Positions 17,032 to 45,785 of a DNA stretch of 64,000 bases are shown here, piece after piece. The notes under the pieces are model-generated. The model was not told the origin of the DNA, ran no database searches, and was given only the letters and a program-made list of their open reading frames with translations. The translations under genes and the position numbers were made by a program. Numbering within the stretch: position 1 is the first letter of the stretch; the number at the start of each line of letters is the position of its first letter. This DNA comes from an uncultured Actinomycetota bacterium (lineage in GTDB: Bacteria; Actinomycetota; Actinomycetes; Propionibacteriales; Nocardioidaceae). The stretch spans positions 165,568 to 229,567 of the forward strand of contig CAWDDC010000005.1 of assembly GCA_963801045.1 (NCBI GenBank), given 5' to 3'.

Positions 17032-17032
17032 T

Positions 17033-26286: not shown

Positions 26287-26300
26287 TGCAAACGGTTGCA
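26287..26300. promoter_or_regulatory. LacI/GalR-type operator O1: TGCAAACGGTTGCA
   Basis: 14-bp palindrome lying 20 nt upstream of the HIBADH-1 start (26267) and directly abutting a putative -10. It matches the family consensus TGnAAnCGnTTnCA. Confidence 0.6.
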
Positions 26301-26329
26301 ATCCTCCCCCGCCCGGTGCCACCCGTCAA
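26301..26329 (-). promoter_or_regulatory. putative promoter of the HIBADH-M24-E1-ALDH-E2 operon
   Basis: On the minus strand: TTGACG (26329-26324), a 17-nt spacer, then GAGGAT (26306-26301). Operator O1 follows immediately. Confidence 0.35.
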
Positions 26330-26358
26330 GGCGGGGGCGGATCGGACGTCTCCGCGGG

Positions 26359-27379
26359 TCAGCCGGGTGGCGGCGCCGTCGACCCCCGGACGCTGAGCGT
26401 GAGCGGGAGCAGCAGCGAGCGCGGGTGCCGGTCGGCGTCCTGCAGCACCTCGAGCAGCAGCCGCGCCGCCTCCGCCCCGATCTCGTAGTGCGGCACCCGC
26501 ACCGAGGTGAGCGGCGGATCGACCCGGTGCATCATCGGGGTGTCGTTGAAGCCCACCACGCTGACCTCGTCCGGGCAGGCCAGGCCGTGCGCCCGCAGCA
26601 CGTCGTAGCAGCCGAGGGCGATCAGGTCGTTGCCGGCCAGCACCGCGGTGTACGGCACCCCCGAGCCGATCAGCTGCTCCATCGCCTCCGCCCCGGCGGC
26701 CTCCGACCAGGTCGAGCAGCCCACGATCCGCTCGGTGCCCCCCGGGAGGCCGAGGTCCTCCAGTGCCTGCCGGAACGCCTGCCGGCGCACCACGCCGGTG
26801 GACAGGTCCTGCGGCCCCGCCAGGTGCACGATGTCGCGGTGCCCGAGGTCGTGCAGGTGCCGCATCGCCATCGCGACCCCGGCCGCGTCGTCGGGCGTGA
26901 CCGAGGGGATGGCCGGGCTGCCGACCCGGCGGTTGACCAGCACCACCGGCGTCCCGGTGCCCGCGAGCTCCTGCAGCAGCGGGTGCTGCAGCCGGGCGGT
27001 GGCGACCACGAAGCCCTCCACGCTGCGCCCGCGGAACGACTCGATCGCCGCGGCCTCGCGGTCGGGATCGTTGTCGGTGTTGACGATCCACGCGTTGTAG
27101 CCGACGGCGCGCAGGACGTCCTCGATCCCCCGCACGATCGGCGGGAACAGCGGGTTGGTGATGTCCGGCAGCAGCAGCCCGATGCTCGCCGAGCGCGAGG
27201 TCTTGAGGCTGCGGGCGATCGGGTTCGGGGTGTAGCCGAGCTGGCGGGCGGCCTGGTCGACCCGCTCGGCGGTCTCGGCGTTGACCAGGCCGCGGGTGGC
27301 GGCGTTGAGTGCCCGCGACGCGGTCGCGGGGTGCACCCCGGCGCTGCTTCGCGACCTCTTTGAGGGTGGCCCGTTCCAC
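26359..27379 (-). CDS. LacI family transcriptional regulator; one frame switch near 27345
   Basis: HTH VERATLKEVAKQ|AGVHPATASRALN, split between the frames of ORFs 26264..27424 and 26359..27558. A periplasmic-binding-protein-like sugar-binding core follows (IGLLLPDITNPLFPPIVRGIED...VVGFND). Confidence 0.85.
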
Positions 27380-27419
27380 GCGGCGCACAGTAGCGCCTGT
27401 CCGCCCCGGTGGGAGGGAT

Positions 27420-27433
27420 CGCAAACGATTGCC
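27420..27433. promoter_or_regulatory. LacI/GalR-type operator O2: CGCAAACGATTGCC
   Basis: Lies in the lacI/transketolase divergent region, 41 nt upstream of the lacI GTG (27379) and 77 nt upstream of the transketolase GTG (27510). The core GCAAACGATTGC is identical to O3 and O4. Confidence 0.55.
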
Positions 27434-27509
27434 CGCCGGAGCCTTGACGCGGGCCGCACGCGGTGGCCATTGTGGCTAGACCAATTGACCACTGTGAGGC
27501 GGGTGGATC

Positions 27510-28341
27510 GTGGCGCGGCTCTCCGACCCCGGCACGCACTGGGCGGTGGAGGACCCACGCGCGCTGGCCCTGCGGATCCGGCGGCGGGCGGTGCGGATGG
27601 TGGCGCCCCAGGGTTTCGGCTACCTCGGCCAGGCGCTGTCGGCGGCCGAGCAGGTGGCGGCGGTCTTCGCCGTGCTGCGGCCGGGGCGGGACCGGCTGGT
27701 CTGCTCGCCCGGGCACTACGTCATCGCGCCGTTCGCCGCCGCGGGCGAGCTGGGCCTGCTCGACGAGGACCTGCTGGACGCGTACGGCCAGAACGGCGCG
27801 ACCCTCGAGGCGATCGGGACCGAGCGGTCGCCGCTGTTCGACCACACCTGCGGATCGCTGGGCCAGGGCCTGTCCGCCGCCGCCGGCTACGCGCTGTCGG
27901 CGCGGATGACCGGCGACGACACCCGCACGTACGCGCTGGTGAGCGACGGCGAGCTGGAGGAGGGCCAGGTGTGGGAGGCGGCCATGTTCGCCGCCCACCA
28001 CCGGCTGTCGGCGCTCACCGTGCTGCTGGACGCCAACAACTCCCAGGTCGACGGCCCGGTCGACACCATCACCACGATCGAGCCGATCGCGGACAAGTGG
28101 ACGGCGTTCGGCTGGCACGCGCAGGACGTCGACGGCCACGACGTCGACGCCGTCGTGACCGCGCTGGAGCGGGCCGCCGGCCACTCCGCAGCCCAGCGTC
28201 GTGGTCTGCCGCACCTCCACCGTGCACGGTCTCGACTGCCTGCCGGCCGACGCGGACGGGCACTTCATCAAGCTCCCGCCCGAGCTCGCCCGGGCCGCCG
28301 TCGACGAGCTCACCGCGCGGCTGGAGGCACGGCATGCATGA
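27510..28341 (+). CDS. transketolase, N-terminal (ThDP pyrophosphate-binding) subunit of a split enzyme; one frame switch near 28185
   Basis: ORF 27510..: GFGYLGQALSAAEQVAAVFA..., GSLGQGLSAAAGYAL and SDGELEEGQVWEAAMFAAHHRLSALTVLLDANN. The C-terminal tail (VVCRTSTVHG...) is in another frame. The stop overlaps the next gene. Confidence 0.85.
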
Positions 28342-29343
28342 GCCGCCGTACGCCACCGTCACCAAGCCCTACGGTCGGGCGCTGCTCGCGCTCGCGCGGC
28401 AGCGGGAGGAGATCGTCTGCCTCAGCGGCGACCTGACCCGGCAGTGCGAGATCGACCTGTTCCAGGAGGCGATCCCGGAACGGTTCGTGCACTGCGGGAT
28501 GGCCGAGGCGAACATGATCGGCGTCGCCGGCGCGCTGGCCCGCTGCGGCCACGTCCCGTTCGTGCACACGTTCGGGGTGTTCGCGACCCGCCGGCCGTAC
28601 GACCAGATCGCCAACGCGATCGCCTACCCCAACCTGCCGGTGCGCATCGTCGGATTCATGCCAGGCGTCTCGTCGCCGGGCGGTCCCAGCCACCAGGCCA
28701 TCGACGACGTCGCCCTGATGCGGTCGCTGCCGAACATGACGGTGGTCGACGTCGCGGACGCCCGCTCGGTCGCCGAGATGGTGCCCGCGGTCGCCGACGT
28801 CGCCGGGGCCGGTCTACGTGCGGCTCAAGCGGGGCGAGGTGCCGGTGATCGTCGACGACCACGAGCCGCCGCTGTCCCTGAGCCGCGCCCGGGTGCTGCT
28901 GGCCGGCACCGACGTGGCGCTGGTGGCCAGCGGGATGATGCTCGCCACGGCGCTGGCCGCAGCGCCGGTCCTCCGCAGCGCCGGCGTCTCGGCCTCGGTG
29001 GTCGACGTGCCGGTGCTGAAGCCGCTCGACACCGCGACGATCCGGACGGTGGCGGCCGCGACCCGCGCCGTGGTCACCGCGGAGAACCACTCGATCGTCG
29101 GCGGGCTCGGCTCCGCGGTGGCCGAGACGCTGGCCGAGGCCGGGTTCGGCCGGCCGCTGCGGCGGGTGGGCCTGCGCGACACCTTCGCCGAGGGCGCGCT
29201 GGACGCGGCGTACCTGTTCGAGAAGTACCGGCTGTCCACGCAGGCAGCTGGTGGACGCCGCGTGGGAGGTGCTCGGACGACCAGGCGCGGCGCCACGGGC
29301 GCCGGTCACGGCAGCCGAACCGGGTGCGTACTCACCGGTCTGA
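28334..29343 (+). CDS. transketolase, C-terminal (pyrimidine-binding) subunit; about 2 frame switches (near 28805 and 29245)
   Basis: MHEPPYATVTKPYGRALLALARQREEIVCLSGDLTRQCEIDLFQEAIPERFVHCGMAEANMIGVAGALA...GPSHQAIDDVALMRSLPNMTVVDVAD. Confidence 0.85.
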
Positions 29344-29391
29344 TCCACCGTCCGCGCCGACCGCGCTCATCACCAGCAGAGGAGCCCGTCC

Positions 29392-30730
29392 ATGACCGAC
29401 TTCTACTCCGCGACCGCGCAGGCCACGACGATCGCGTCGCCGGGCGCCACCCAGGCGGTCGACTGGGAGCGCCGGGTGGACTACGAACGGCTCCGCGGCG
29501 ACCGCTTCGCGCGCGTCCAGACCGCGCTCGAGGGCTCGCACCTCGGTGCCCTGGTGCTGTTCGACATGAACAACATCCGCTACACGACGGCGACCCACAT
29601 CGGGAACTGGGCGCGGGACAAGTTCTTCCGCTGCGCGCTGGTGATGCGCGGCCAGGAGCCGATCCTGTGGGACATCGGGTCAGCCGCACGCACCCACCAG
29701 CGGCACGCCGACTGGTTCGGCAGCCAGAGCTGGCAGGCCGGTCTGTCCAGCTGGCGCGGGGCCATCCCCGAGGAGGTCGGGGTGGAGGCGGGCAACGCCA
29801 GGCGGCTGGCCCGCATCCTGCGCGAGCACGGCCTCGCGGACGAGCCGGTCGGCGTCGACATCGTCGAGCTGCCGGTGCTGCGGGCGCTCGAGCGCGAGGG
29901 CCTGCGGATCGAGGACGGGCACGGGTTCATGCAGGACGTCCGGGCGATCAAGACCGCCGACGAGGTGGCGCTGCTCGACCACGCGGCAGCCCTGGTCGAC
30001 GGCGCCTACGACGAGCTGTACCGCTGCCTGCGGCCCGGGAGTGCGCGAGAACGACATGGTGGCGCTGGTCAACCGCTACCTGTACGAGCGGGGCTCGGAC
30101 GAGGTGGAGGCGGTCAACTCCATCTCCGGCGAGCGGTGCAGCCCGCACCCGCACGTGTTCTCCGACCGACTCATCCGGCCCGGCGACACCGCCTACTTCG
30201 ACATCATCCACGCGTTCAACGGCTACCGGACCTGCTACTACCGCACCCTCAACGTGGGCAGCTGCAACAGCGCGCAACGCGGTGCGTACGCGCTGGCGCG
30301 CGAGTTCATGGACAACGCGATCGCCGAGATCCGGCCGGGTGCCACCTCGGCGGACGTCGTCGAGCACTTCCCGGCGGCGGAGGAGTTCGGCTTCGGCAGC
30401 GAGGAGGAGGCGTTCGGGCTGCAGTACTGCCACGGCCTCGGCCTGTCGAACTGGGAGCGCCCACTGATGAGCCGCTACCACTCCTTCGAGCACCCGGTGG
30501 TGCTGGAGGAGGGCATGGTCTTCGCGATCGAGACGTACTGGCCGACGCCCGACGGACGGGCCGCGGCGCGGATCGAGGAGGAGGTCGTGGTGACGCCGGG
30601 CGGGTGCGAGCTGCTCACCCGGTTCCCGGCCGACCAGCTCTACGTGGCGGGCACGCAGTACTGGAACGGGGTGGACCTGCCGGGGACGCCGGTCCAGACG
30701 CCGCCCGCGGACCGCGGCGGGCTCGCGTGA
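29392..30730 (+). CDS. M24-family (creatinase/prolidase fold) hydrolase, paralogue 2; one frame switch near 30040
   Basis: ATG is preceded by GAGGAG. Roughly half of the residues match paralogue 1 by eye (PGDTAYFDIIHAFNGYRTCYYRTL...HGLGLSNWERP...FAIETY...IEEEVVVT). Confidence 0.8.
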
Positions 30731-31639
30731 GCGGGGCGGACACCACCGTCGGCTGGCTCGGCACCGGCCGGATGGGCGCCGCCCTGGCGGGCCGGCTGGT
30801 CGACGCCGGCCACCCGCTGCGGGTGTGGAACCGCACCACGGCCAAGGTCGAGCCGCTGGTCGCCAGGGGTGCGGAGGCGGTCGGGTCGATCGCCGAGCTC
30901 GCCGCCTGCGACGTCGTCTTCGTCATGGTCTCCACACCGGACGACCTGCTGGAGGTGGTGACCGGCCCGGCCGGCCTGCTGGCGGCGGAGCCGCGGCCGT
31001 CGGTGGTCGTCGACTGCTCCACGGTCTCCGCAGAGGTCTCGGCCGACGTCCGCCGGACGGCGGCCGACCTGGGCGTCGCGTTCCTCGCCGCCCCGGTCAG
31101 CGGCAACCCGCACGTGGTCGCCGAGGGCAGGGCGTGCATCGTCGCGTCCGGCCCGGCCGGCACGTTCGCCCTGCGTCCGGCCCTACCTGGAGACGATGGC
31201 GTCGGCGGTCGTCCACGCCGGCGAGGGCGAGCAGAGCCGGCTGATCAAGCTCTGCCAGAACCTCTACCTCGGCATCATGGTCCAGGCCCTGGTCGAGGTG
31301 ACCAGCCTGGTCGAGAAGGGCGGCACCGACCGGGCGGCGTTCCTGGAGTTCCTCAACGGCACCGTCGTCAGCTCGGACTGGGTGCGCCGGCGCACCCCCG
31401 ACCTGGTCGCCCGCGACTGGACGCCGGTGTTCACGACCGAGATGCTCCGCAAGGACTTCGACCTCAGCCTGGGTGCGGCCCGCGCGCTCGAGGTGCCGCT
31501 GCCGCTCGGCGGGGCGGTGCACCAGCTGATCCAGTCGGCGATCGGCACCGGCGCCCGCGACCTCGACTTCCTCGCGTTGTACGAGCAGCAGGCCCGCGGT
31601 GCCGGGCTCACGGCCGCCGAGCCGGCGGGCGAGCCCTGA
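30727..31639 (+). CDS. NAD(P)-dependent beta-hydroxyacid dehydrogenase (HIBADH family), paralogue 2; one frame switch near 31170
   Basis: The GTG overlaps the M24-2 stop (GTGA). Sequence: VGWLGTGRMGAALAGRLVDAGHPLRVWNRT...APVSGNP... The C-terminal part is ORF 31196..31639. Confidence 0.8.
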
Positions 31640-32394
31640 TGCCGGGGCGGAGCGGCCGCGGCCGCCCGGTCGACATGAGCACGGTCCGCCCGGTCCAGCT
31701 GCCGCGGCTGGCCGACGAGGTGGCCGACAAGATCAGGTCCTTCATCCTGGACGAGAACCTGGTCGAGGGCACCCGGCTGCCGTCCGAGCGCAGCCTCGCC
31801 GACATGCTCGGCGCCAGCCGGCCGACGGTGAGCCAGGCGCTCCGGTCGTTGACCCTGACCGGGCTGATCGAGATCCGCCGGGGCTCCGGCGCGTACGTGC
31901 TGCGGCAGCCGGACCGGTCCATCACGAACTCGCTGAGCCTGCTGTTCGAGCTCGAGCGCGACAACGTCGCGCACCTGGTCGACCTCCGGCTGTGGCTCGA
32001 GCAGCTCGGGGTGCAGGAAGCCGTGCACCACGGTGGCGAGGCGGACCTGGCCGTGGTGCGGGACTCGCTGCGGCGGCTGGCCGCCAGCGTCGGCGAGACC
32101 GCGACCTGGATCGCCGCGGACACCGTGTTCCACGCGACCGTCGTCGGGCTGTCCGGCAACCCGTTCCTCACCGCGATCTACGAGAGCGTGCACACCGCCG
32201 TGCTCCGCTACGAGTACCAGGCCTGGGTCGAGGAGGACGTGGTCCCGCAGTGGCTGCGGCCCGAGGCCGCCGACAGCCAGCTGGCGATCCACGAGCCGAT
32301 CGTGGCCGCGCTCGAGGCGGGCGACCTGGACGCCGCGGCCGCCGCGGTGGCGCACCACCACGAGGTCATGCGCCAGCACCTGGACAGCCGATGA
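31639..32394 (+). CDS. GntR family (FadR/FCD subfamily) transcriptional regulator
   Basis: In the frame of ORF 29392..32394: ADKIRSFILDENLVEGTRLPSERSLADMLGASRPTVSQALRSLTLTGLIEIRRGSGAYV, followed by a helical FCD-like domain. The start overlaps the previous stop (TGATG). Met at 31675 is an alternative start. Confidence 0.85.
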   Translation: MPGRSGRGRPVDMSTVRPVQLPRLADEVADKIRSFILDENLVEGTRLPSERSLADMLGASRPTVSQALRSLTLTGLIEIRRGSGAYVLRQPDRSITNSLSLLFELERDNVAHLVDLRLWLEQLGVQEAVHHGGEADLAVVRDSLRRLAASVGETATWIAADTVFHATVVGLSGNPFLTAIYESVHTAVLRYEYQAWVEEDVVPQWLRPEAADSQLAIHEPIVAALEAGDLDAAAAAVAHHHEVMRQHLDSR

Positions 32395-32415
32395 GCCCCC
32401 GGCTGACGACCGCTC

Positions 32416-32444
32416 TTGACAGCACGTGGCGGCGGTCACAGGAT
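32416..32444 (+). promoter_or_regulatory. putative promoter of the ABC-transporter operon
   Basis: TTGACA (32416-32421), a 17-nt spacer, then CAGGAT (32439-32444). Operator O3 starts 11 nt downstream. Confidence 0.35.
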
Positions 32445-32455
32445 GGCCCAGCGGC

Positions 32456-32469
32456 TGCAATCGTTTGCG
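32456..32469. promoter_or_regulatory. LacI/GalR-type operator O3: TGCAATCGTTTGCG (reverse complement CGCAAACGATTGCA)
   Basis: Lies 17 nt upstream of the substrate-binding-protein ATG (32486), just downstream of the putative -10. Confidence 0.6.
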
Positions 32470-32485
32470 ACTCCCTGGAGGATCC

Positions 32486-33752
32486 ATGGCCAGCGCATCC
32501 CCGCCCCCTCTCCTCGCCGGCCGGCGAGCCCGCCGCACCGCCTGCGTGGTGCTGGCCGTCGGCGCGCTGGCGCTGTCCGCGTGCACCAAGAGCGACGACG
32601 CGTCCGGCGGGGGCAGCGACGACGACGGCCCGATCATGATCGGCACCTCGCTGCCGCTCACCGGTGAGTTCTCCCAGCCGGGCACGGCGGCCAAGGAGGG
32701 CTACGAGGTCTGGCAGGAGCTCACCAACGCCAACGGCGGCCTGCTCGGGCGCGACGTCGAGCTCACGATCAAGGACGACGCCTCCAACCAGAACACGATC
32801 GTCGCCGACTACAACGCGCTGATCAGCCAGGACAACGTCGACCTGCTGCTGGGGACGTTCTCGTCGCTGCTCAACCTGCCCGCCTCCGCGGTGGCCGAGC
32901 GCAACCAGATGCTCTACGTCGAGCCGGCCGGTGGGTCGCCGGAGATCTTCACCCGCGGACTTCAAGTACCTGTTCTTCGCCCAGCAGGCCACGGCCGACA
33001 AGCAGGGCGACGTGTTCGCCACCTGGCTGTCGTCGCTGCCCGAGGACGAGCGGCCCCAGACGGCGGCCTACCCCACCCTCGACGACCCGTTCGCGCTCCC
33101 GACCTCCGAGGGCATCGAGGCGATCCTGTCCGAGAACGGCATCGAGACCGTCTACCGCGAGACCTACTCCATCGACACCAAGAACTTCGACACCATCGTC
33201 AACGCGATGAAGGCCGAGGACCCGGACATCGTGGTCAACGGCGCGCAGACCGAGGACGGCATCGGTATGGTCCGCGCGATGCTCAAGGCCGACTTCGAGC
33301 CCGACTGGCTCTACCAGACCAACGCGCCCTCGCTCGGCGACCAGTACTCCGACGCGATCGGGGTGGAGAACACCGAGGGCATCTTCTACTCGATCAGCCA
33401 CTCGCCGGAGGCGGCGACTCCCGGCAACGAGGAGTTCGTCGCGAAGTACGACGAGATGTTCGGCGGCGCCCCGCCCGAGGACGCGGCCGACGCGTTCGCG
33501 GCCGGCCAGGTGCTGACCGCTGCGGTCGAGGCCGTCGGCAGCATCGACGACCAGCTGGCCCTCGCCGACTGGCTGCGGGAGAACGAGGTCGACACCATCC
33601 TCGGCCCGCTGAGCTGGAACGACGACGGCAGCCCGATCGGCGAGTTCCTCACCGGCCAGTGGCAGAACGGCGGCGTCGAGATCGTGCTGCCCGAGGAGGC
33701 CGCCACCAGCGACAAGATCGTCATGGGCTGGGAGCCCGGCGGCGGCAGCTGA
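32486..33752 (+). CDS. ABC transporter substrate-binding lipoprotein, Leu/Ile/Val/amide-binding (Peripla_BP_6-like) family; one frame switch near 32955
   Basis: RBS GGAGGA. Lipobox LALSAC. Sequence: IMIGTSLPLTGEFSQPGTAAKEGYEVWQELTNANGGLLGRDVELTIKDDASN... It continues in ORF 32931..33752. Confidence 0.85.
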
Positions 33753-34637
33753 TGGAGCAGTTCGTCCAGAACCTGGCCCTGGGCGTCCTGCTGGGCGGTG
33801 TCTACGCCCTGGTGGCGGCCGGGTTGACGCTGATCTTCGGCGTCATGAAGATCATCAACCTGGCCCAGGGGGCGTTCCTCGATCCTGGCCGCTTTCATCA
33901 GCTACACGCTGTGGTCGTGGGCGGGCATCGACCCGCTGCTGTCCATCCTCATCACGACACCGGTGATCTTCGCGCTCGGCTGGGTCGTCTACCACCTGGT
34001 GGTCTCGCCGATCCGTACCGCGCCGATGTCGTCGACGGTGCTGCTCACGTTCGGGCTGGCGCTGGTGCTCGAGGCCGTGATGGGCATGACCTGGGGCAAC
34101 AACTCCACCGCGATCCGGCCGAGCTACGTCGACGAGTCCTACACGATCGGTGAGCTCTTCCTGCCGAAGGCGCAGGTGTTCGGCGGCGTGATCGCGCTGG
34201 TCGTGCTGGCCGGCCTCTACCTGCTGCTCACGAAGACCTGGACCGGCCGGGCGATCCGGGCCGCGGCGGTCAACCCCACCGGCGCCCAGCTGGTCGGCAT
34301 CACCATCGGCACGGTCTCGGCCCTGGTCTTCGCGATCGGCATCGCGACCGCCGGGGCGGGCGGGGCGATCGTCGGCGTGCTCTACCCGTTCCTGCCGGCC
34401 GCGCACTACCAGTGGATCGCCCGGCTGCTGGCGATCGTCGTGCTGGGCGGCATGGGCAGCCTCGGCGGCGCCGTCCTGGCCGCGCTGGTGTTCGGGGTCG
34501 CCGAGACCATGACGCAGGCGTACGTCTCGCCCGCCTGGGCGACGGCGGTGCCGTACGCGATCGTGTTCGCGGTGCTGCTGGTGCGGCCGCAGGGGCTGCT
34601 CGGATCGAGGCTGCGCGAGGACGCGGTGGCCGCGTGA
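33752..34637 (+). CDS. branched-chain amino acid-type ABC transporter permease (LivH-like); one frame switch near 33880
   Basis: MEQFVQNLALGVLLGGVYALVAAGLTLIFGVMKIINLAQGAF... then ORF 33963..34637. The start overlaps the SBP stop (TGATG). Confidence 0.85.
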
Positions 34638-34652
34638 GCCGGCGCGACCCAG

Positions 34653-36545
34653 GTGGCCACCGACCCGGTGTGGGTCGGGCGGCTCCTGGCCGTGCTGGCG
34701 GGCGCAGCGCTGCTCGCGTACCCGATGCTGTCCGACGACCTCTACTACCAGAACATGATCGTGCTCTCGCTGGTGTTCGCGGTCGGGGCCAGCGGGCTGA
34801 ACATCATCACCGGCATGGCCGGCTACGTGTCGCTCGGCCAGGGCGCGTTCGTCGGGCTCGGCGGCTACACCATCGGCGTGCTGGCCACCCGGGTCGAGGG
34901 TGTGTCGGCGTGGTGGTGGGTGCCGGTCGCGGCGGTGGTGAGCGGACTGGTCGCGGTCGTGCTCGGGCTGGTGGCGCTGCGCGCGAGCGGCCCGTCGTTC
35001 GTCATCATCACGGTCGCGTTCCTGTTCCTCGTCCAGGTGATCGCGGTCAACTGGGTGTCGGTCACCAACGGCACGGCCGGGCTGACGCTGCCGTTGCCGA
35101 CCTGGGACTACGAGATCCTGAACTGGCCCTTCTACTACGCGCTGTGCGTGATCCTCGCGCTGCAGCTGGTGATGAGCTGGTGGATCCAGCGCACCAAGTT
35201 CGGCATGGGCCTGGTGGCGATCCGCGAGGACGAGACCAAGGCCGCCACCGTCGGCATCAACCTGCCGGTCGAGAAGATCCTGGCGTTCGTCGCCAGCACC
35301 GTCTTCGTCGGCGCCGCGGGTGCGGTCTACGGCTACTACCTGACGTTCATCGACCCGCGCGGCATGTTCGGCATCCTGCTCAGCGTCCAGATCGTGCTGT
35401 CGGTGCTGGTCGGCGGCAAGGGCACGCTGTGGGGCCCGGTGATCGGCGCGTTCCTCATCGAGTACCTCAACGAGCTGGCCAACAACCAGCTCGGCGGCGG
35501 CAACGTCCGGCTGCTGATCTTCGGCGGGCTGCTGGTCGGGCTGGTGCTGTTCCTGCCCAAGGGGATCCTGCCGGCCATCGAGAGCCTGCTGACCTACCGG
35601 CGCACCCACGGCAAGGCGGGGCTCGTCGGCGCCCGGCTGGAGCCGGGGGGCAGCTTCCCGGTCGCCCGCGACCGGCCCACCGGCCGGGCGGTGCCGGCCG
35701 GTGCCCCGCTGCTCGAGATCACCGGCCTGTCCCGCCGGTTCGGCGGCCTGCGCGCGGTCGACGGCGCCACGCTGACCGTGCCCGAGGGCTCGATCACCGG
35801 GCTGATCGGTCCGAACGGGTCGGGCAAGACCACCCTGTTCAACCTGATCGACGACACCCTGCGCGCCGACTCCGGCGAGATCCGGTTCGCCGGTGAACGC
35901 ATCGACAGCCTGCCGTCGTGGGGGCGGGCGCACCGCGGGCTGGGCCGCACCTTCCAGATCACCCGGCTGTTCCGCGAGATGACGGTGCTCGAGAACGTCG
36001 TCGTCCCGCAGCGGTCGTTCTCCTGGCAGCAGCTGGGCCGGATCGCGGTCAGCGGCGCCGAGGCCGAGCGGGCCCAGGAGCTGCTCGACTTCGTCGGCAT
36101 GGGCGCGTTCCGCGACCAGCGGGCCGCCGCGCTGTCGTACGGGCAGCAGAAGCTGGTGGAGCTGGCGCAGATCCTGATGCTCGACCCGCGGCTGATCCTG
36201 CTGGACGAGCCCGCCGGTGGCATCAACCCGGTGCTCATCGAGCGGATGGGCGAGATGATCCGCGAGCTGAACGCCCACGGCACGACGTTCCTCATCGTCG
36301 AGCACAACATGCACTTCGTGCTCGGGCTCTGCGACCCCGTGCACGTGCTGGCCCGCGGCCGGTGCATCAGCACCGGCACCCCCGACCAGATCCAGGCCGA
36401 CCCGGCGGTGATCGACGCCTACCTCGGCGACGACTTCACCCTCGAGGGCGCGACCCAGGCCGAGGTCGCCGCCACCGTCGAGGTCGCGACCATCGCCGAG
36501 GCGGCAGCGCCCGACCCCGACCGGCGCAACGGGAGCGTGCGCTGA
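34653..36545 (+). CDS. fused LivM-like permease and LivG-like ATP-binding protein
   Basis: Intact 630-aa ORF. The N-terminal about 330 aa are polytopic permease. The C-terminal half has Walker [10 protein letters not shown], signature LSYGQQK and Walker [11 protein letters not shown]. Confidence 0.85.
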
Positions 36546-37282
36546 TGCTGCGGCTCGACGGGGTGGTGGCCGGCTACGGCGGTGGCGACGTGCTGCAGGG
36601 CGTCGACATCGAGGTGGCGCCGCAGTCCGTCGCGTGCATCGTGGGTCCCAACGGCGCCGGCAAGTCGACCGTGCTGCGTACGGTCAGCGGACTGCTCAAG
36701 CCGCGGCTCGGCGAGGTGCTGCTCGACGGGAGGCGCATCGACACCCTCAGCCCGGCGCAGATCCTGGCCCAGGGGGTCAGCCAGGTGCCGCAGTCGGACG
36801 CGTTGTTCTCGACCCTGACGGTGCGCGAGAACGTGCTGCTCGGCGGCTACATCATCCGCCGCGACCGGGCGCTGGTGCGCCGTCGCTACGACGAGGTCAA
36901 GGCGCTGTTCCCGATCGTGGGCGACCGCGAGGCCGACCGCGCCGGCAACCTGTCCGGCGGGCAGCGCCGGATGGTGGAGTTCGCCCGCTCGCTGATGCTC
37001 GACCCGGTGCTGGTCCTGCTCGACGAGCCGTCCCTCGGCCTCGACCCGCGCGCGCTGCAGTCGGTGCACGACTCGGTGCTGCTGATGCGCGAGCACGGCA
37101 AGACGATTCTCATCGTGGAGCAGAACGTGCGGTTCGGCATGCGGCTGGCCACCGACGGGATCGTGATGGAGAGCGGGCGGGTGGTGACCCAGCGGCCGGC
37201 CCAGGAGGTCGTCGACGATCCCGAGATCGCGAGCCTCTACTTCGGCGGCACCCCCGGGACGTCGGAAGGACGAGGCACGTGA
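36545..37282 (+). CDS. branched-chain amino acid-type ABC transporter ATP-binding protein (LivF-like)
   Basis: [24 protein letters not shown]...GPNGAGKST...[15 protein letters not shown]...LLDEPSLGL. The start overlaps the previous stop (TGATG). Confidence 0.9.
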
Positions 37283-38860
37283 GCACCAGCAGCGCCGACA
37301 TCGTGGTCGCGGGCGCCGGCCACAACAGCCTGATCACCGCGTGCTACCTCGCCAAGGCCGGCCACTCCGTCCTGGTGCTCGACGCCCGCCCGATCCCCGG
37401 TGGCGGTGCCGCGACGGAGGAGATCCTGCTGCCGGGCTACCGGCTCGACTCCTGCTCGACCGGGCACACGATCATCCAGAACAACCCGCTGATCGCCGAC
37501 GACGAGCTCGGGCTCGCGGCCACCTACGGCCTGCGCTACGTCGACCCCGACCCGGTCGGGCACGTCGCCTTCCCCGACGGCGCGCAGCTCACCCACTGGC
37601 TCGACGTCGACCGCACCGTCGAGGAGATCGCGCGGTTCTCCAAGCGGGACGCCGACTCCTACGTCCGGCTGCTGCGGGAGTGGGACGAGGTCAAGGCGGT
37701 CTTCGGCCGCAGCCAGCACCGCCCGATCGGCGCCGGCCCGTCGCTGGAGCAGGAGCTGTCCGAGCACCCGCGCGGCAACGTGTGGAAGCGCCGCCGGGTG
37801 CTCGGCTCGTGGGACGTGATCCGGCACGAGTTCGAGAGCCGGCACGTCCAGTCGTACCTGCTCTGGCAGGCCTACCAGACCCTGGTGCGGCCCGACTCCG
37901 CCGGCTCCGGCCTGCTCGCCTACTCCGTGGTCGCGTCCCGGCAGCGGCGCAGCTGGACCATCCCGGTCGGCGGTTCCGGCACGCTCACCGACGCGCTGGT
38001 GGCGTGCCTCGAGTCGTACGGCGGCCGCGTGCTGTGCAACCGGACCGTGCGGCGGCTGCTGGTCGAGGACGACCGGTGCGTCGGGGTGGAGACGACCGAC
38101 GGCGAGCAGTACCGCGCCGGCACCGCCGTGCTGTCGAGCATCCACGTCAAGCACCTGCTGGACATGGCGCCCGCGGAGTCGTGGGACGAGGACTGGACCT
38201 ACGGCGTGCAGACCTACGAGGTCGGCGCGTCCGGCCTCGCGGTCTACCTGGCCACGACCGCGCCCCCCGAGTTCGTCGTCGACGGCGAGCCGCGCTCGGC
38301 GGTGTCCGCGGGTCTCGTCGGGTGGCCCGAGGACGTCGTCCGGCACGCCCGCGACATGGCCGACGGCGTGTGGAGCGACGAGGTGCCGTGGCTGCTGATG
38401 GCCACGCCGACGCTGGCCGACCCGTCGCGGGCGCCGGCGGGCCACCACACCGTCAAGTTCCTGCAGCCGTGCGGCTGGCGGCTGCGCGACGGCGACGACT
38501 GGGAGTCGGCCAAGGCCCGGCGGCTGGAGACGCTGCTCGAGGCCGTCCGGCGGCACTGCCCCGGCTTCACCGACGACGTGATCCTGGCGTCGTACGTGAA
38601 GGGGCCGTACGACATCGAGGCGACCAACGCGCACATGATCCGCGGCGCCTTCCACGGCGGTGACCGCAGCATCGCCTGGTCGGGGCCGCAACGTCCGGCG
38701 CCGGGCTGGGCCTCGCACCGCACCCCGATCGCCGGGCTCTACCAGACCGGCGCCACCACGCACCCCGGCGGCTCGATCACCGGTGCGCCGGGGCGCAACG
38801 CCGCGCAGGTCATGCTCGCGCGACCTCGGCACGTCCCTCGAGGAGCTGCTGCATGGCTGA
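37279..38860 (+). CDS. NAD(P)/FAD-dependent oxidoreductase, phytoene desaturase (CrtI)/amine oxidase-like; one frame switch near 38820
   Basis: Dinucleotide fold [40 protein letters not shown] and C-terminal [24 protein letters not shown]. The GTG overlaps the LivF stop. The last about 13 aa are in ORF 38660..38860. Confidence 0.75.
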
Positions 38861-39941
38861 CCGCAACGTCGAGGTCGCGATCGCCCACTGGGCGCCGCGG
38901 ATGATCCAGAACGGCGTGGACTACAACGACTTCGTCCGTACGACCGCGCGGATCGAGACGTGGGCCGACTGGCTGCCGGAGTGGAACCGCACCGCCGACG
39001 AGCACGCCGAGCTGGCCGCGCGTACCGAGGCCGAGGGGCACCTGCTCACTGCCGGCCACGCCTGGCGGCGGGCGTCGGTCGACCGGCACTTCGGCAAGTT
39101 CGTCTGGCAGCTCGACCTCGACCTGGTCGACGAGGCGACCCGGCGCAGCGTCGAGGAGATGCAGCACGCCCACCGGCTGCTCGACCCCACCGCCGAGCGG
39201 CTGGTCGTCGACGTCGACGGGCACCCGTTGGCGGCCAACCTCCGCCGGCCGCCGGGGGTGGACCGGCCACCGTGGGTCGCGGTGATCCCCGGCCTGGACT
39301 CCACGAAGGAGGAGTTCTTCTACTTCGAGCAGTCGTTCCTCGACCGCGGCATGGCCACGGTGTCGGTCGACGGTCCCGGCCAGGGCGAGACCGGTCTGGA
39401 CGGCGCCGGCCGCGGGCTGCCGATCCGCGCCGACTACGAGACCGGCCTGGTCCCGCTGCTCGACCTGGTGTGCGCCCGCACCGACCTCGACCACGACCGG
39501 ATCGGCCTGGTCGGCGTCAGCCTCGGCGGCTACTACGCGCCGCGGGTGGCGGCGCACGAGCCCAGGCTGCGCGCGGTCGCCGGCATCAGCGGCCCGTTCC
39601 GCTTCGGCGACCTGTGGGACGACCTGCCGCCGATGACCCGCGAGACGTTCACGGTGAAGTCGGGTGGCGGCAGCGACGACGACGGCCGAGCGCGGGCCGC
39701 GACGCTCGACCTCACCGGCGTCTGCGAGCGGATCGAGGTGCCGGCGCTCTACGTCACCGGCGCCCTGGACCGGCTGATCCCCTGGCAGCAGACGCAGGCG
39801 CAGGCCGAGCACACCCCGAAGGGCGAGTTCGTCTGCTACCCCGACGGCAACCACGGCGCGTCGAACCTGCCCGCCGTGGCACGCCCGTTGATCGCGGACT
39901 GGATGGCCGACCGGCTCGGCACCGGACAGGAGGAGTCATGA
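38853..39941 (+). CDS. alpha/beta hydrolase (FrsA / 2,6-dihydroxypseudooxynicotine hydrolase-like architecture, tentative)
   Basis: Intact 362 aa. A helical N-terminal domain of about 140 aa is followed by the nucleophile elbow GVSLGG (Ser223), Asp306 (GALDRL) and His334 (DGNHG). Confidence 0.65.
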   Translation: MADRNVEVAIAHWAPRMIQNGVDYNDFVRTTARIETWADWLPEWNRTADEHAELAARTEAEGHLLTAGHAWRRASVDRHFGKFVWQLDLDLVDEATRRSVEEMQHAHRLLDPTAERLVVDVDGHPLAANLRRPPGVDRPPWVAVIPGLDSTKEEFFYFEQSFLDRGMATVSVDGPGQGETGLDGAGRGLPIRADYETGLVPLLDLVCARTDLDHDRIGLVGVSLGGYYAPRVAAHEPRLRAVAGISGPFRFGDLWDDLPPMTRETFTVKSGGGSDDDGRARAATLDLTGVCERIEVPALYVTGALDRLIPWQQTQAQAEHTPKGEFVCYPDGNHGASNLPAVARPLIADWMADRLGTGQEES

Positions 39942-41419
39942 CCTCACACGCGTGGTCCCGTCGGGCCGTGCTCGGTGCGGCCGCCGCGAGCGGCACCGCG
40001 GCCCTCGGCCCGGTCGCCTGGGCGGCGCCACCCGCCGCACCCCGTCCCTCGGCGGGACTGCCCCGGCGCAAGGAGTTCGTCATCCGTGGCGCCTACGTGC
40101 TGAGCATGGACGACGAGATCGGTGACCTCGACGGCGGCGACGTGCACGTACGGGACGGCCAGATCGTCAACGTGGGCAGGCGTCTGCGCCCGCGCTGCCC
40201 GGTCGTCGACGGCCGGGACACCATCGTGATGCCCGGTCTGGTCGACACCCACTGGCACCTCTGGACCACCCTTTACCGTTCGATGGCGTCGTCGTCGCCG
40301 GACAACGCCTACTTCACGCTCAACCTGCGGCACGGCCTCGTCTGGGAACCCGGCGACACCTTCGACGGCGTGCGGCTCGCCGCGGCCGACGCCGTGCACA
40401 ACGGGGTGACGACCGTGCACGACTGGTCGCACAACCTGCGCGGACCCGACTACGCCGACGCCAACCTCTTCGCCCTCAACGCCAGTGGCCTGCGCGGCCG
40501 GTTCTCGTACGGTGCGCCGCAGGGACATCCGGCCGACCAGCCGATCGACCTCGAGGACCTGGCCCGGGTCAAGCGGCGCTGGTTCGACACCGGGCGCGCC
40601 GAGCTGCTGCGGCTCGGCCTCGCCGGCCGACCGCCGGTGGGGACCGGAGCCGCGGAGCTCGACCGCTGGCGGCTGGAGTACGACACCGCCCGCGAGCTGG
40701 GACTGCCGGTCAGCGTGCACGCCAACTCCAACCGGGCCCAGGGCGACCGCGCGATGATCGCGCAGCTGGCCGAGGAGGACATGCTCGGCCCGCACCTGCA
40801 GGTGATCCACGCGCTCTACACCACGCCCGAGGAGCGGGCGGCGCTGGTCGGGTCCGGCACCCCGGTGTCGGTGAGCCCGTGGTCGGAGCTGTTGATCGGC
40901 TACGGCGTCACCACGGTCAGGGAGCTGATCGAGGCGGGCGCGCACGTCACCCAGTCGGTCGACACCCTCCCGCTGACCGGCACGGCGGACATGTTCTCGG
41001 TCATGCGGCTGACCCTCGGCCTGCACCGCGGGCAGTCGGAGAGCGAGTTCTCGATCGCGGCGCGGCAGATCCTGGCGTCGGCGACGATCGACGGCGCCCG
41101 CGCGCTGGGTCTCGGCGACGTCACCGGCTCGCTGACACCCGGCAAGCGGGCCGACCTGCTGATGGTGCGGACGGACGCCGTCTCGATCGCACCCTTCACC
41201 GACCCCGTCAACATGATCGTGACCGCGGCGCACCCGGAGCACGTCGACACCGTGGTCGTCGACGGGCGGGTGCTCAAGCGGCGCGGCCGGCTGACGGCGG
41301 TCGACACCCGCCGGGTGGTCCGCCGCGCCGAGGGGGCGCTGGCTGCGGTGATCGACCGGGCCGAGGCCGACCCCGTGGCCCGGTCGGCGGTCGCCGCAGA
41401 CATCGCCTGCTGCGGTTGA
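39938..41419 (+). CDS. amidohydrolase superfamily metallo-hydrolase with twin-arginine (Tat) signal peptide
   Basis: Intact about 493 aa. The signal peptide is MTSHAWSRRAVLGAAAASGTAALGPVAWA. The HxH metal motif is PGLVDTHWHLW, and downstream SVHAN and ...GKRADLL are typical of the family. ATGA overlap with the previous gene. Confidence 0.8.
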   Translation: MTSHAWSRRAVLGAAAASGTAALGPVAWAAPPAAPRPSAGLPRRKEFVIRGAYVLSMDDEIGDLDGGDVHVRDGQIVNVGRRLRPRCPVVDGRDTIVMPGLVDTHWHLWTTLYRSMASSSPDNAYFTLNLRHGLVWEPGDTFDGVRLAAADAVHNGVTTVHDWSHNLRGPDYADANLFALNASGLRGRFSYGAPQGHPADQPIDLEDLARVKRRWFDTGRAELLRLGLAGRPPVGTGAAELDRWRLEYDTARELGLPVSVHANSNRAQGDRAMIAQLAEEDMLGPHLQVIHALYTTPEERAALVGSGTPVSVSPWSELLIGYGVTTVRELIEAGAHVTQSVDTLPLTGTADMFSVMRLTLGLHRGQSESEFSIAARQILASATIDGARALGLGDVTGSLTPGKRADLLMVRTDAVSIAPFTDPVNMIVTAAHPEHVDTVVVDGRVLKRRGRLTAVDTRRVVRRAEGALAAVIDRAEADPVARSAVAADIACCG

Positions 41420-41453
41420 GGCGGCGCAGGCCGAGGCGGCTGCTCCGGGTCGA

Positions 41454-42344
41454 GTGGGAGCGGGCGCCGGGGTGAGCGGGGCTGTCTGGGCCGCGCTCTC
41501 CGGCGCCCTGTTCGGGATCTTCCAGGCGGTGAGCGCGGTCATCGTCCGCCGGGCGGTGAGCGTCTCGCTCGCGACGTTCGTGCAGCTCGCCGGGGCCACG
41601 GTGGCCGTGGGCGCGATCGCCGCGGTGACCGAGGGACTCGACCGGCTGGGCGAGGCGCCGGCCCGCAGCCTGGTGATGTTCGCGCTGGCCGGGATGATCC
41701 ACTTCCTGGTCGGCTGGACCTCGCTGAACCGGAGCCAGCGCCGGATCGGGGCGGCGCGGACGGCACCGCTGCTGGCGACCACGCCGTTGTTCGGGCTGCT
41801 GGTGGCGCTGGTCGTGTTCGGCGAGCTGCCCGGCCAGGTCGCGCTGGTCGGCATCGCGGTGACGATGCTGGGCGCGTACGTGATCACCGACCCGGGTGCG
41901 GGCAGCCGGGTCGCGCTGGGCGAGTCCGGCTGGGGTCTGGTGACGGCGTTCGTGTGGGCGCTGAGTGCGCTGTTCACCGTCGAGGGGCTGGACGGTTTCT
42001 CCTACCCGCTGCTCGGCGTCACCGTCGGCATGGCGGCGGCCACGGTGCCGTACGGCGTGCTGCTGCTCGCCGACCGGGCACCGGTCACGTGGGCGGACGT
42101 CCGCGCCGACCTCGGGCTCAAGCTGCTCGCCGGCACCCTGGTCGCGGTCGCCACCTGGTGGCGCTGGCTCGGCCTGGAGACGACCTCGATCGGCATCGTG
42201 CTCGCGCTGCAGCTGTTGTCGGTGCCCGCCGTGCTCGTCGCCGCCCCGCTGATCGCCCGCCGGGGCGACGAGGTCGTGACCACCCGGCTGGCCCTCGGCA
42301 CCGGCGTGGTCCTCCTCGGCGCCCTCGCCCTCATCCTCGGCTGA
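41454..42344 (+). CDS. EamA/DMT family transporter
   Basis: Intact 296-aa ORF with about 10 hydrophobic helices and two EamA-like halves. Confidence 0.75.
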   Translation: MGAGAGVSGAVWAALSGALFGIFQAVSAVIVRRAVSVSLATFVQLAGATVAVGAIAAVTEGLDRLGEAPARSLVMFALAGMIHFLVGWTSLNRSQRRIGAARTAPLLATTPLFGLLVALVVFGELPGQVALVGIAVTMLGAYVITDPGAGSRVALGESGWGLVTAFVWALSALFTVEGLDGFSYPLLGVTVGMAAATVPYGVLLLADRAPVTWADVRADLGLKLLAGTLVAVATWWRWLGLETTSIGIVLALQLLSVPAVLVAAPLIARRGDEVVTTRLALGTGVVLLGALALILG

Positions 42345-42380
42345 CCCGCCCCGACCGCCTCGCCCGCCGCGCTCCGAACT

Positions 42381-42445
42381 CGCGAAGTGGCGGCAACACG
42401 CCGGCGACACGCCGGAGTGGGCGACCGGATGCCGCCACTTCCGCG
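42381..42445. repeat. REP-like palindromic intergenic element, copy B
   Basis: CGCGAAGTGGCGGCAACACGCCGGCGACACGCCGG...TGCCGCCACTTCCGCG with about 15-bp arms. It lies between the convergent EamA and IorB-like genes. Confidence 0.6.
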
Positions 42446-42459
42446 TTGGCGGAGGGACG

Positions 42460-44576
42460 TCAGCCGGCCTCGATCGCCGCCGCCACCCGCTCGGCGGTGA
42501 GCGGCAGGTCGCGTACGCGCACCCCGATCGCGTCGGCCAGCGCGTTGCCGATCGCCGCCGCGACCGGGCCCGCCGCCGCCTCGCCGGAGCCAAGGCTGGG
42601 CTGGTCCGGTCGGTCGAGCACGTGCACCTCGACCCGGGGCACCTGGCTGAACCGCAGGATCGGGTACGCCTCCCAGTCGGTGCTCTCGACCCCGCCGGCG
42701 CCGAGCCGTACCTGCTCGAGCACCGTCCAGCTGGTCGACTGGATCGCGCCGCCCTCCAGCTGGTTGACCACGCCGTCGAGGCTCACCACCCGGCCCACGT
42801 CGACGGCGACGGTCAGCCGCCGGACCGCGACCCGGTCGACCGCCTCCACCTCGGCGACCACCGCGCAGTAGGCACCGCGGTTCTTGTAACGGGCGTAGGC
42901 GATCCCGCGGCCGACGTCGTCCGGACGCGGCTCGTGCAGACCGCCCCGCTCGGCGGCGGTGCGCAGCACGTCGGCGGCGCGCTCGTCGCGCAGGTGCGCG
43001 AGCCGCAGCCGCACCGGGTCGGCCCCGGTCTGCTGCGCCAGCTCGTCGAGGAACGACTCGATCGCGAACACGTTGAGGTGCGCGCCGAGCGAGCGCAGCG
43101 CCGAGGTACGCACCGGCATCGTCAACGAGCGGTGCGCCACGACCTCGAGCCGGCCGAGGTCGTAGCCCGGCTCCGCGTTGCGCGCCGACCCGTGCCCCGC
43201 GTGCGCCGGATGGGTCGACCGACGGCGGCGCGTCGGCGTCGCGGCGGTGGGTGTGCCCGAGCAGGCCGGGCTCCCCGCCGTAACCGGGTCGTGCGGTGTG
43301 CCCGTTGCTCCACAGCTGGTGCGACCAGTCGGTCACCCGGCCGTCCGGCCCGACGGTGGCGGCCAGGTCGACGGCCATCGCCGACCCGAACGGCGACCAG
43401 CCCAGCTCGTCGGCCCGACTCCACTGCACGCGTACCGGGCCGGCCGGGCAGGTGCCGGGCCAGCAGCACCGCGTCGAACGCGACGTCGTCGGCGCCGTTG
43501 TGGCCGTAGCAGCCGGCGCCCTCGACGTGCTGGACGCGTACCCGCTCGAGGGTCGAGGTCGAGCGCTGCGGCGATCGCGGCCCGCTGCGGGTGCACCCCC
43601 TGGCTGTGCGTCCACACCTGCACGGCAGCCGTCGTCCCACCGGGCGATGCCGCAGCCGGGGGCGATCGAGGCGTGGGCCAGCGGGGGCCGGGTGTACGAC
43701 GCGCGCAGGGTGGTGGCGACCGGCGGCGGGTCGGACCGCTCGACCACCGTGGTCTCGACCGGCTGCTCCCGCAGCCAGGCGGGTACGTCGACCGGCAGCT
43801 CGATGCCGCCGGACCACACCGCTGCGCCGGCCAGCGCGGCGGCCGCCACCTCGACCTGGTCCTCGGCGTCGGCGAGCACGCCGACGAACGAGCCCTCGCG
43901 CACCACCGCGAGCACGCCGGGCAGCGCCTCGACAGCGCCCGGGTCGAGCGACGCCAGCCGGGCGCCCGGTCGCGGCGGCCGCACCACCCGGCCGTGCGCC
44001 ATGCCGTCCATCCGCAGGTCGTGCAGGAAGCGCGGACGGCCGAGCAGCGTGTCCGCGAGGTCCAGCCGGTCGACGTCGGGGCCGTCGCGGCGGACCACCG
44101 TGGCGGCCGGCAGCGGCTCGCCGGTCGCTTCGACGTCGAGCCCGCCGGCGCGCGCGGCCTCCCAGAGATCGGCGACCGCGTCGTCGCCGCGCAGGAAGCA
44201 CCCGTCGTCGAGGACGAGGTCGGCGGGCGCACAGCCCGCGTCGGTGGCGACCCGCTCGGACAGCAGCCCGAGCAGCACCCGGCAGACGTGCCGCAGGCCG
44301 GCACCCGACTGGGTGATGGACAGGCTGCCGGCGGTGAAACCCTCGTTCGGCCCGGTGTCGGTTGCGGCCGCGGCGACCCGTACCCGCGTGGGGGCGACCC
44401 CGAGCTCGTCGACGACGATCTGCGCGAGCGCGGTGAGGATCCCCTGTCCCAGCTCGACCTTGCCGGTGCGGACGAGCACCTGGCCGGGCTCGTCCAGGTC
44501 GAGCCAGGTGCTCAGCAGCGGGTTGGCGAGCAGGCTGGGCGGCAGCTCCGTCGGCAGCTCCGTCGGCAGCGGTCAC
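42460..44576 (-). CDS. molybdopterin-dependent hydroxylase large subunit (IorB / aldehyde oxidase-xanthine dehydrogenase family); 5 or more frame switches
   Basis: Segments: LVRTGKVELGQGILTALAQIVVDELGV..., VQVWTHSQGVHP...RVRVQHVEGAGCYGHNGADDVAFDAVLLA...VRVQWSRADELGW, and the C-terminal ORF 42460..43140 (MPVRTSALRSLGAHLNVFAIESFLDE...GSGEAAAGPVAAAIGNA). The GTG overlaps the small-subunit stop. Confidence 0.75.
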
Positions 44577-45028
44577 GTCGTCACCGACAGCACCGCGCGG
44601 ACGATCCGCTCGTGGGTGCCGCACCGGCACAGGTGCCGGTCGAGCGCCTCGACCACCTCGTCGCGGGTGGGGGTCGGGTTGTCGCGCAGCAACGCCGCGG
44701 CACTCATCAGGATGCCGGGGATGCAGTAGCCGCACTGCGCGGCCTGCTCCCGCAGGAACGCCGCCTGCAGCGGGCCGGGCTCGCCGTCGTCGGCGAGGTC
44801 CTCGACGGTGCGTACCGGCCGCTCGCCGACGTAGTCGACCGGCTGGTCGCACGAGGGTGTCGGGTGTCCGTCGAGCCAGACCGTGCAGGCTCCGCACAGC
44901 CCCTGCCCGCAGCCGAACTTCGCGCCGGTCAGGCCCAGCGCGTTGCGCAGCACCAGCAGCAGCGGCGTCCCGGGCTCGGCGGCGACCTGCTCGGACCGGC
45001 CGTTGACGTCCAGCCGGTACGTGCCCAC
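44573..45028 (-). CDS. (2Fe-2S)-binding small subunit of a molybdo-hydroxylase (IorA/CoxS-like)
   Basis: Intact 151 aa with two cluster motifs: CGQGLCGACTV and CGYCIPG...CRCGT. Confidence 0.9.
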   Translation of the reverse strand: MGTYRLDVNGRSEQVAAEPGTPLLLVLRNALGLTGAKFGCGQGLCGACTVWLDGHPTPSCDQPVDYVGERPVRTVEDLADDGEPGPLQAAFLREQAAQCGYCIPGILMSAAALLRDNPTPTRDEVVEALDRHLCRCGTHERIVRAVLSVTT

Positions 45029-45054
45029 GCCTCAGCCTCCCGCGCCGGTCGCGC

Positions 45055-45068
45055 TGCAAACGATTGTA
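45055..45068. promoter_or_regulatory. LacI/GalR-type operator O4: TGCAAACGATTGTA
   Basis: Lies 27 nt upstream of the IorA-like GTG (45028). On the coding strand it reads TACAATCGTTTGCA, so its left half doubles as a TACAAT -10-like hexamer. Confidence 0.55.
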
Positions 45069-45097
45069 CCGGCGCGCCGGCTGCCGCGGGGACGGGT

Positions 45098-45153: not shown

Positions 45154-45245
45154 GACGCGGATGCCAGGGGGCCGAAAACTGGTCGCCAGAGCGAGGGCGG
45201 GGTCCGTACGGTGCCGGCGCATGGCGCTGTTCGTGATGGTGCGTC

Positions 45246-45773: not shown

Positions 45774-45785
45774 CGTGCGGGTGCG

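Follow-up and report, generated by a model that had tools for sequence, protein, structure and literature searches.

The LacI family of transcriptional regulators follows a common pattern: 1173 of 1303 motifs described for it are even palindromes with a central CG, autoregulation is found in 72% of the family, and, among the groups to which a pathway has been assigned, 96% regulate the use of carbohydrates (PMC4052901, Ravcheev et al. 2014). A minority of local regulators, namely AdeR, HpxR, and UriR, serves nucleoside and nucleobase utilization and the catabolism of nitrogen compounds, and CcpA of Firmicutes, for which HPr-Ser46-P is the required corepressor, is a global catabolite regulator (PMC4052901). 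Here, we describe a locus from an uncultured member of the Nocardioidaceae (Actinomycetota; contig CAWDDC010000005.1), in which four near-identical palindromes, O1 to O4, accompany a gene for a LacI-family regulator. The window, by which we mean the whole stretch of 64 kb that was analyzed, has a GC content of 73%; its genes were called by third-position GC and named with Pfam and NCBIfam (Table 1). A preliminary description of this DNA had tied four transcription units to one local repressor of the LacI/GalR type: the HIBADH-M24-E1ab-ALDH-E2 operon, lacI itself, an ABC-importer operon, and an iorAB-like operon. Phylogenetic footprinting supports this view, and the locus is very probably a local, autoregulated LacI/GalR-type regulon, which, judged by its sequence, would use the standard mechanism and would be new only as a member of its class.

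Four palindromes and their conservation

All four copies of the 14-bp palindrome lie exactly where the preliminary description had placed them. Read against the gene map, each is intergenic and lies 16 to 40 nt 5' of a start codon: O1 is 19 nt upstream of the HIBADH ATG (26267, minus strand), O2 is 31 nt (GTG 27388) or 40 nt (GTG 27379) upstream of lacI, O3 is 16 nt upstream of the ATG of the binding-protein gene (32486), where it separates the -10 of the ABC operon from the ribosome-binding site, and O4 is 26 nt upstream of the GTG of the 2Fe-2S subunit gene (45028, minus strand). These distances agree closely with the 17 to 41 nt given earlier. On its other side, O2 is 76 nt upstream of the GTG of a transketolase gene (27510).

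The 12-bp core, GCAAWCGWTTGC, occurs four times in the window when at most one mismatch is permitted, against 0.10 occurrences expected, and these are O1 to O4 only; none of 100 dinucleotide-preserving shuffles gave four core matches. One count would fit a coincidence, or a non-regulatory repeat such as an intergenic repeat element: with up to three mismatches the 14-mer is found four times against 1.85 expected, which by itself is not significant. Since the core count is significant and the loose 14-mer count is not, the signal sits in the near-perfect core. This core count, the position of all sites just upstream of operon starts, the lack of any repeat common to the flanks of O1 to O4, the lack of an Rfam match, and the enrichment in orthologous loci described below effectively refute such an origin, and we consider its probability negligible. 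A position weight matrix (PWM) trained on sites from the orthologous loci finds O1 to O4 only, at 20.4 to 25.2 bits, and nothing further in the window at or above 8 bits.

For the comparison, one genome per species was scanned, which gave 78 loci (1.43 Mb in total) with relatives of the window LacI. These relatives are 54 to 84% identical to it, except for two distant paralogues (loci L077 and L078) at 37 to 38%, and the source taxa are Mycobacteriaceae, Nocardioidaceae, Streptosporangiales, Micromonosporaceae, and many soil metagenome-assembled genomes (MAGs). The preliminary description had named retention of the operators in orthologous islands as a check on its proposal, and they are indeed retained: we found 215 core sites, where first-order Markov simulations give 5.9 +/- 2.6 (about 36-fold enrichment), with at least one site in 75 of the 78 loci and two or more in about 70. 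It had also suggested looking for enrichment at promoters and absence inside genes. This pattern was found in the PWM scan of the window as well as in the orthologous loci, where 210 of the 215 sites (98%) are intergenic, though about 86% of the DNA codes. Three of the five "coding" sites (in L051 and L054) fall where other loci have the control region of the binding-protein gene, and they look like over-extended start calls. The motif had been assigned to the LacI/GalR type, and its even palindrome with a central CG is indeed the signature of this family; the four palindromes, with the consensus YGCAAWCGWTTGCR and a central CpG, can be predicted with good confidence to be the operators of the LacI/GalR-family repressor encoded in their midst.

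From each site, we walked along the co-oriented genes and tallied the families in the site-headed operons. Counted over the loci having the gene, such operons contain the ABC binding protein in 49 of 51 loci, lacI in 53 of 74, HIBADH in 34 of 46, the alpha/beta hydrolase in 27 of 37, M24 in 25 of 41, ALDH in 15 of 22, and the 2Fe-2S subunit in 6 of 8; 2Fe-2S/Mo genes are thus part of site-headed operons in other loci too. The presence of lacI in a site-headed operon in most loci matches the 72% autoregulation reported for the family (PMC4052901). In the majority of genomes, lacI comes third in an operon that also encodes an unknown protein (about 255–300 aa) and an MFS transporter and is divergent from the ABC operon, and the divergent region holds two sites 58–110 bp apart. 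The window is without the genes for these two proteins, and its lacI is monocistronic, with O2. Looping via a fixed spacing of paired sites was considered and rejected: no such spacing was seen, the pairs being 58–110 bp or more apart.

Two side observations concern the wider gene content of these loci. The protein of about 255–300 aa that precedes lacI together with the MFS gene (e.g., L045 8063-9993, from Actinoplanes sp. CA-142083, CP192076; L012 7971-9957; L036 7867-9965) belongs to no family, shows faint SsuA/NMT1-like similarity, and has no evident signal peptide. In mycobacterial loci, the regulon also holds an NMT1/SsuA-type ABC system and LVIVD-repeat beta-propeller proteins.

The regulator gene and rival binders

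The regulator gene had been called the only one of its family in the window, and tblastn finds only this one. Its product has an N-terminal LacI-type helix-turn-helix (HTH; matched by PF00356), a hinge helix, and a periplasmic-binding-protein-like effector domain (Peripla_BP_3 at 3.9e-40, Peripla_BP_1 at 2.5e-37). As sequenced, the HTH is split over two frames, with VRRVERATLKEVAKQ (the ATLKEVAKQ part) in one and AGVHPATASRALN in another, and alignment with four orthologous loci reveals a single inserted base. When this base is removed, the full HTH ATLKEVAKQAGVHPATASRALN is restored and aligns with CcpA residues 3-24; the frame-corrected regulator can be aligned over its whole length with the structures of CcpA, PurR, and LacI, and the hinge segment NPIARSLK is part of this match (YTPNPIARSLK aligns with YRPNAVARGLA of CcpA). 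In the LacI family, the leucine of the hinge helix inserts at the central CpG of the operator, and the central CG is invariant in 215/215 orthologous sites.

If the frameshift is real, the operators would be orphaned in this strain: the repressor gene would be a pseudogene and the island would be constitutive or under other factors only. The inserted base fits this possibility, because relative to the four orthologues it puts ATLKEVAKQ and AGVHPATASRALN in different frames, and no in-frame start codon would keep helix 1 of the HTH. However, at least eight other genes of the window are also frame-broken (recognized by domain matches split across frames) and retain very strong codon bias; they include a housekeeping gene, endonuclease IV, as well as ALDH, E2, the binding protein, and the Mo large subunit. 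In the closest relative, an uncultured Actinomycetota MAG (L001), a permease/ATPase gene is likewise broken. This pattern is that of assembly indels, not of the decay of a single gene. Because so many other genes are broken with their codon bias intact, the +1 frameshift in lacI is probably an assembly error, and the loss of the repressor in this strain appears unlikely.

Another regulator might bind the palindromes in place of the window LacI. A second regulator gene, of the GntR/FCD type, lies immediately upstream of O3, and our view covers 64 kb of the genome, outside which a LacI paralogue might share the motif. Three points speak against these candidates: of the loci compared, just the window and L001 have the GntR gene, whereas 75 of the 78 loci with the LacI orthologue have the motif; an even palindrome with a central CG is the LacI-family signature and does not resemble the usual GntR half-sites; and the loci of the two distant LacI paralogues have 1 and 0 sites. 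The GntR protein was rejected as the binder on grounds of distribution, and overall it is highly improbable that a regulator other than the window LacI recognizes the palindromes.

Promoters, proposed mechanism, and the divergent transketolase operon

The promoter-like elements noted earlier at O1 and O3 and the TACAAT hexamer overlapping O4 are present, and their layout is kept in orthologous loci. O1 immediately adjoins the -10 of the HIBADH-operon promoter, the -10 of the ABC operon ends 11 nt before O3, and O4 reads TACAATCGTTTGCA on the minus strand, so that the -10-like hexamer TACAAT makes up its 5' half. Upstream of HIBADH-M24, 13 loci have TTGAC, N17-18, and (C/G)AGGAT, followed directly by TGCAACCGATTGCA, a ribosome-binding site, and the start 19 nt on, as at O1; this layout is kept in loci of Mycobacterium, Actinomadura, and MAGs. 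The layout at O3 recurs before the ABC binding-protein gene in more than 40 loci: TTGACA, N17-19, a hexamer resembling a -10, then about 10 nt, the operator, GGAGG, and ATG. An operator with a TACAAT -10 as its first half, as at O4, recurs, for example, in L026, where a proper TTGACA lies upstream. Such positions imply that repression would be steric, at or just downstream of the -10.

We infer from the sequence that the window LacI binds these sites, that it represses rather than activates, that it responds to an inducer, and that the substrate of the pathway is of the class named below. A repressor dimer would bind each operator through the HTH and the hinge helix and would block RNA polymerase at O1 and O4, which adjoin or overlap the -10, and at O3, which covers the transcript start; through O2, it would repress its own gene. 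A small-molecule effector, either the substrate of the pathway or an early intermediate, would bind the C-terminal sugar-binding-protein-like domain and release the repressor. This would switch on the Liv/Urt-type ABC importer, the CrtI-type flavoenzyme, the alpha/beta hydrolase, the amidohydrolase, the two-subunit Mo-hydroxylase, and the HIBADH-M24-E1/E2-ALDH operon.

Together with the frameshift and the possible paralogue discussed above, two points weigh against this reading. For simple occlusion, the position of O2, upstream of the likely -35 of each of the two divergent promoters, is atypical. In addition, the promoter hexamers fail a strict sigma-70 consensus scan of the E. coli type; a terminator scan of the four control regions detected none either. 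As the E. coli-type scans are empty, the proposed promoters rest on actinobacterial-style hexamers and on conservation.

Two further features lie close to these control regions. An inverted repeat rich in GC (ATCCTCCCCCGCC / GGCGGGGGCGGAT; 26301-26342, with 13-nt arms and a 16-nt loop) follows shortly after the stop codon of lacI; it has the unit 1 -35 in its loop and the -10 in one arm, and it may be a lacI terminator hairpin that overlaps the next promoter. At the other end of the gene, a TACTGT -10-like hexamer stands 8 nt before the GTG of the conserved VxRATLKEV N-terminus (27379-27393) and is kept in L001 and L012, suggesting a leaderless lacI transcript.

The operon of the split transketolase adjoins lacI divergently, and its membership in the regulon is uncertain. 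Relative to its likely promoter, O2 stands before the -35, at about position -50, and the PWM scan shows no second LacI site there. Between the -10 and the ribosome-binding site lies a different box, the near-palindrome TGGCTAGACCA, which, when no mismatch is allowed, is found just once in the window and has a counterpart at the equivalent place in L001 (TGGCCTAGCCA, L001 4944-4954). The GntR/FCD regulator, encoded by the last gene of the same operon, may have its operator in this box. Because of the position of O2, the lack of a second LacI site, the different box, and the operon's own GntR/FCD gene, we think that the transketolase operon is mainly under its own regulator. On the other hand, the usual comparative criterion accepts a site 30-140 nt upstream of the start codon (PMC4052901), by which O2 could be assigned to the transketolase operon too. 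The preliminary description, which had missed the GntR/FCD gene, placed two thiamine diphosphate (ThDP)-dependent enzyme systems under one repressor: this is supported for the E1/E2 unit, whereas LacI control of the split transketolase is doubtful. Among the loci compared, L001 is the only one besides the window to have the transketolase, GntR, and E2 genes. Two M24 plus HIBADH pairs (24073-26267 and 29392-31639) flank lacI in mirror orientation; they are paralogues, 62% and 55% identical, and each stands beside a different ThDP-dependent system, with E1/E2 on one side and the split transketolase on the other.

Gene content and comparison with known LacI-family systems

Table 1. Operators, promoter elements, and genes of the island (window coordinates; frame breaks are approximate)
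Feature	Position	Strand	Remarks
O1	26287-26300	none	TGCAAACGGTTGCA; PWM 24.8 bits
O2	27420-27433	none	CGCAAACGATTGCC; lacI/transketolase divergent region; PWM 20.4 bits
O3	32456-32469	none	TGCAATCGTTTGCG; PWM 25.2 bits
O4	45055-45068	none	TGCAAACGATTGTA; PWM 21.7 bits
lacI-family regulator gene	26359-27388	minus	+1 nt insertion near 27343
Unit 1 (HIBADH-M24-E1/E2-ALDH operon)	19199-26267	minus	six genes
Promoter-like element, unit 1	26301-26328	minus	TTGACG (26328-26323), N17, GAGGAT (26306-26301); read from sequence
HIBADH-like dehydrogenase	25311-26267	minus	unit 1
M24 metallohydrolase	24073-25299	minus	unit 1
E1 alpha	23166-24041	minus	unit 1
E1 beta	22059-23057	minus	unit 1
ALDH	about 20502-22050	minus	unit 1; frame break near 20875
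E2	19199 to about 20500	minus	unit 1; frame break near 19955
Unit 3 (ABC-importer operon)	32486-42344	plus	
Promoter-like element, unit 3	32416-32444	plus	TTGACA (32416-32421), N17, CAGGAT (32439-32444); read from sequence
Liv/Urt-type binding protein	32486-33752	plus	unit 3; frame break near 32930
Permeases and ATPases	33849-37282	plus	unit 3
CrtI-family FAD oxidoreductase	37279-38904	plus	unit 3
Alpha/beta hydrolase	38853-39941	plus	unit 3
Amidohydrolase, TRZ/ATZ-deaminase type	39968-41419	plus	unit 3
EamA exporter-like protein	41472-42344	plus	unit 3
Unit 4 (IorAB-like hydroxylase)	42460-45028	minus	two subunits
2Fe-2S small subunit	44573-45028	minus	unit 4
Molybdopterin-binding large subunit	42460-44572	minus	unit 4; frame break near 43140-43245
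Transketolase operon	27510-32394	plus	neighboring operon
Likely transketolase promoter	27444-27473	plus	TTGACG (27444-27449), N18, CATTGT (27468-27473)
Candidate GntR box	27473-27483		near-palindrome
Split transketolase, N part	27510-28436	plus	
Split transketolase, C part	to 29395	plus	frame break near 28760
Second M24	to 30730	plus	
Second HIBADH	to 31639	plus	frame break near 31190
GntR/FCD regulator	31639-32394	plus	
Endonuclease IV (nfo)			frame break near 46190-46290

On the right of O4, the window continues with endonuclease IV, a MacB-type ABC system, and rpsF-ssb-rplI-dnaB, which indicates that the island ends at O4. A "xylose-isomerase-like" gene in this part was rejected as a sugar gene, being endonuclease IV itself. 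The 717 bp between O4 and endonuclease IV (45069-45785, 79% GC) have no convincing open reading frame, Pfam match, or similarity to the related loci. A gene at 15999-18203, which lies immediately outside the island and adjoins it in L001 as well, encodes a 734-aa protein with a FemAB/GNAT-like domain and an alanine-racemase N-terminal domain.

The M24 enzyme keeps the prolidase-type metal ligands and resembles DddP over its full length (NCBIfam); in a structure search, it resembles several long M24 chains and the ectoine hydrolase DoeA. It is also strongly conserved, with 83-86% identity across families. No NCBIfam assignment at the equivalogue level was obtained for the M24, HIBADH, FAD, hydrolase, amidohydrolase, or Mo-enzyme genes, so that the substrate could not be named. 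Dimethylsulfoniopropionate, ectoine-like amidines, creatine, lactams, and N-heterocycles were considered, and none was supported past family-level resemblance. Rfam and tRNA scans found nothing, and hence gave no riboswitch hint to the ligand. By their families, the switched genes appear to make up a pathway that breaks down a small, nitrogen-containing compound other than a sugar. Extending this to the whole LacI orthologue group, we put forward, at about even chances of being right, that it represents a widely conserved actinobacterial regulon (Mycobacteriaceae, Streptosporangiales, Micromonosporaceae, Nocardioidaceae, and soil MAGs) for a still undescribed non-carbohydrate catabolic pathway, with a Liv/Urt-type importer, a DddP/DoeA-like M24 enzyme, a HIBADH-type dehydrogenase, and an SSADH-like ALDH as its core and a small nitrogenous compound, not a sugar, as its effector. 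In the window, 17 genes in four units are tied to one predicted switch, which offers a practical handle for finding the substrate.

A literature search with the 12-mers of the motif core returned papers on PurR and MalR only; a second search, for LacI together with M24 and HIBADH, gave no paper, and no characterized orthologue was found. E. coli PurR is alike in several respects. It belongs to the LacI/GalR family, its pur box ACGCAAACGTTTGCGT is an even palindrome with a central CpG and a core (GCAAACGTTTGC) that is nearly GCAAWCGWTTGC, it has an HTH and a hinge helix with the leucine as in ARSLK, and it serves non-sugar metabolism. However, PurR depends on a corepressor and represses purine biosynthesis as a global regulator, whereas the window regulon is a local catabolic and transport island, and PurR is a distant relative of the window LacI (phmmer gives 128 bits, against 166 bits to CcpA). 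By our reading of the sequences, the recognition-helix residues are HPAT in the window LacI and STTT in PurR. Membership in a PurR regulon was rejected on account of the catabolic and transport targets and of this weaker match.

CcpA is the best match of the window LacI among solved structures, over the full length. The cre consensus bound by CcpA, TGWAANCGNTNWCA, has the TGnAAnCGnTTnCA skeleton, as does the window motif. CcpA differs in its mode of action: nothing in the window suggests a dependence on HPr-Ser46-P or a global catabolite role. The likeness to AdeR, HpxR, and UriR is one of gene content: the island has xanthine-dehydrogenase-family and deaminase-type amidohydrolase genes, but none of the NCBIfam equivalogues for the catabolism of purines or nucleosides passed its cut-off.

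In its layout, the locus resembles those of the classical local repressors LacI, GalR, and RbsR (PMC4052901), with which it has in common a few operons beside the regulator, palindromic promoter-proximal operators, and, as proposed here, autoregulation and induction by ligand release. The targets of those repressors are mostly sugar genes, whereas Pfam and NCBIfam find no sugar transporter, sugar kinase, isomerase, or glycoside hydrolase in the four units, so that the island does not qualify as a carbohydrate regulon. It would thus be one of the few non-sugar regulons of the LacI family, and one that recurs in many soil actinobacteria; its non-sugar content and wide conservation add modest interest, while the view of regulation that the classical repressors provide is left unchanged.

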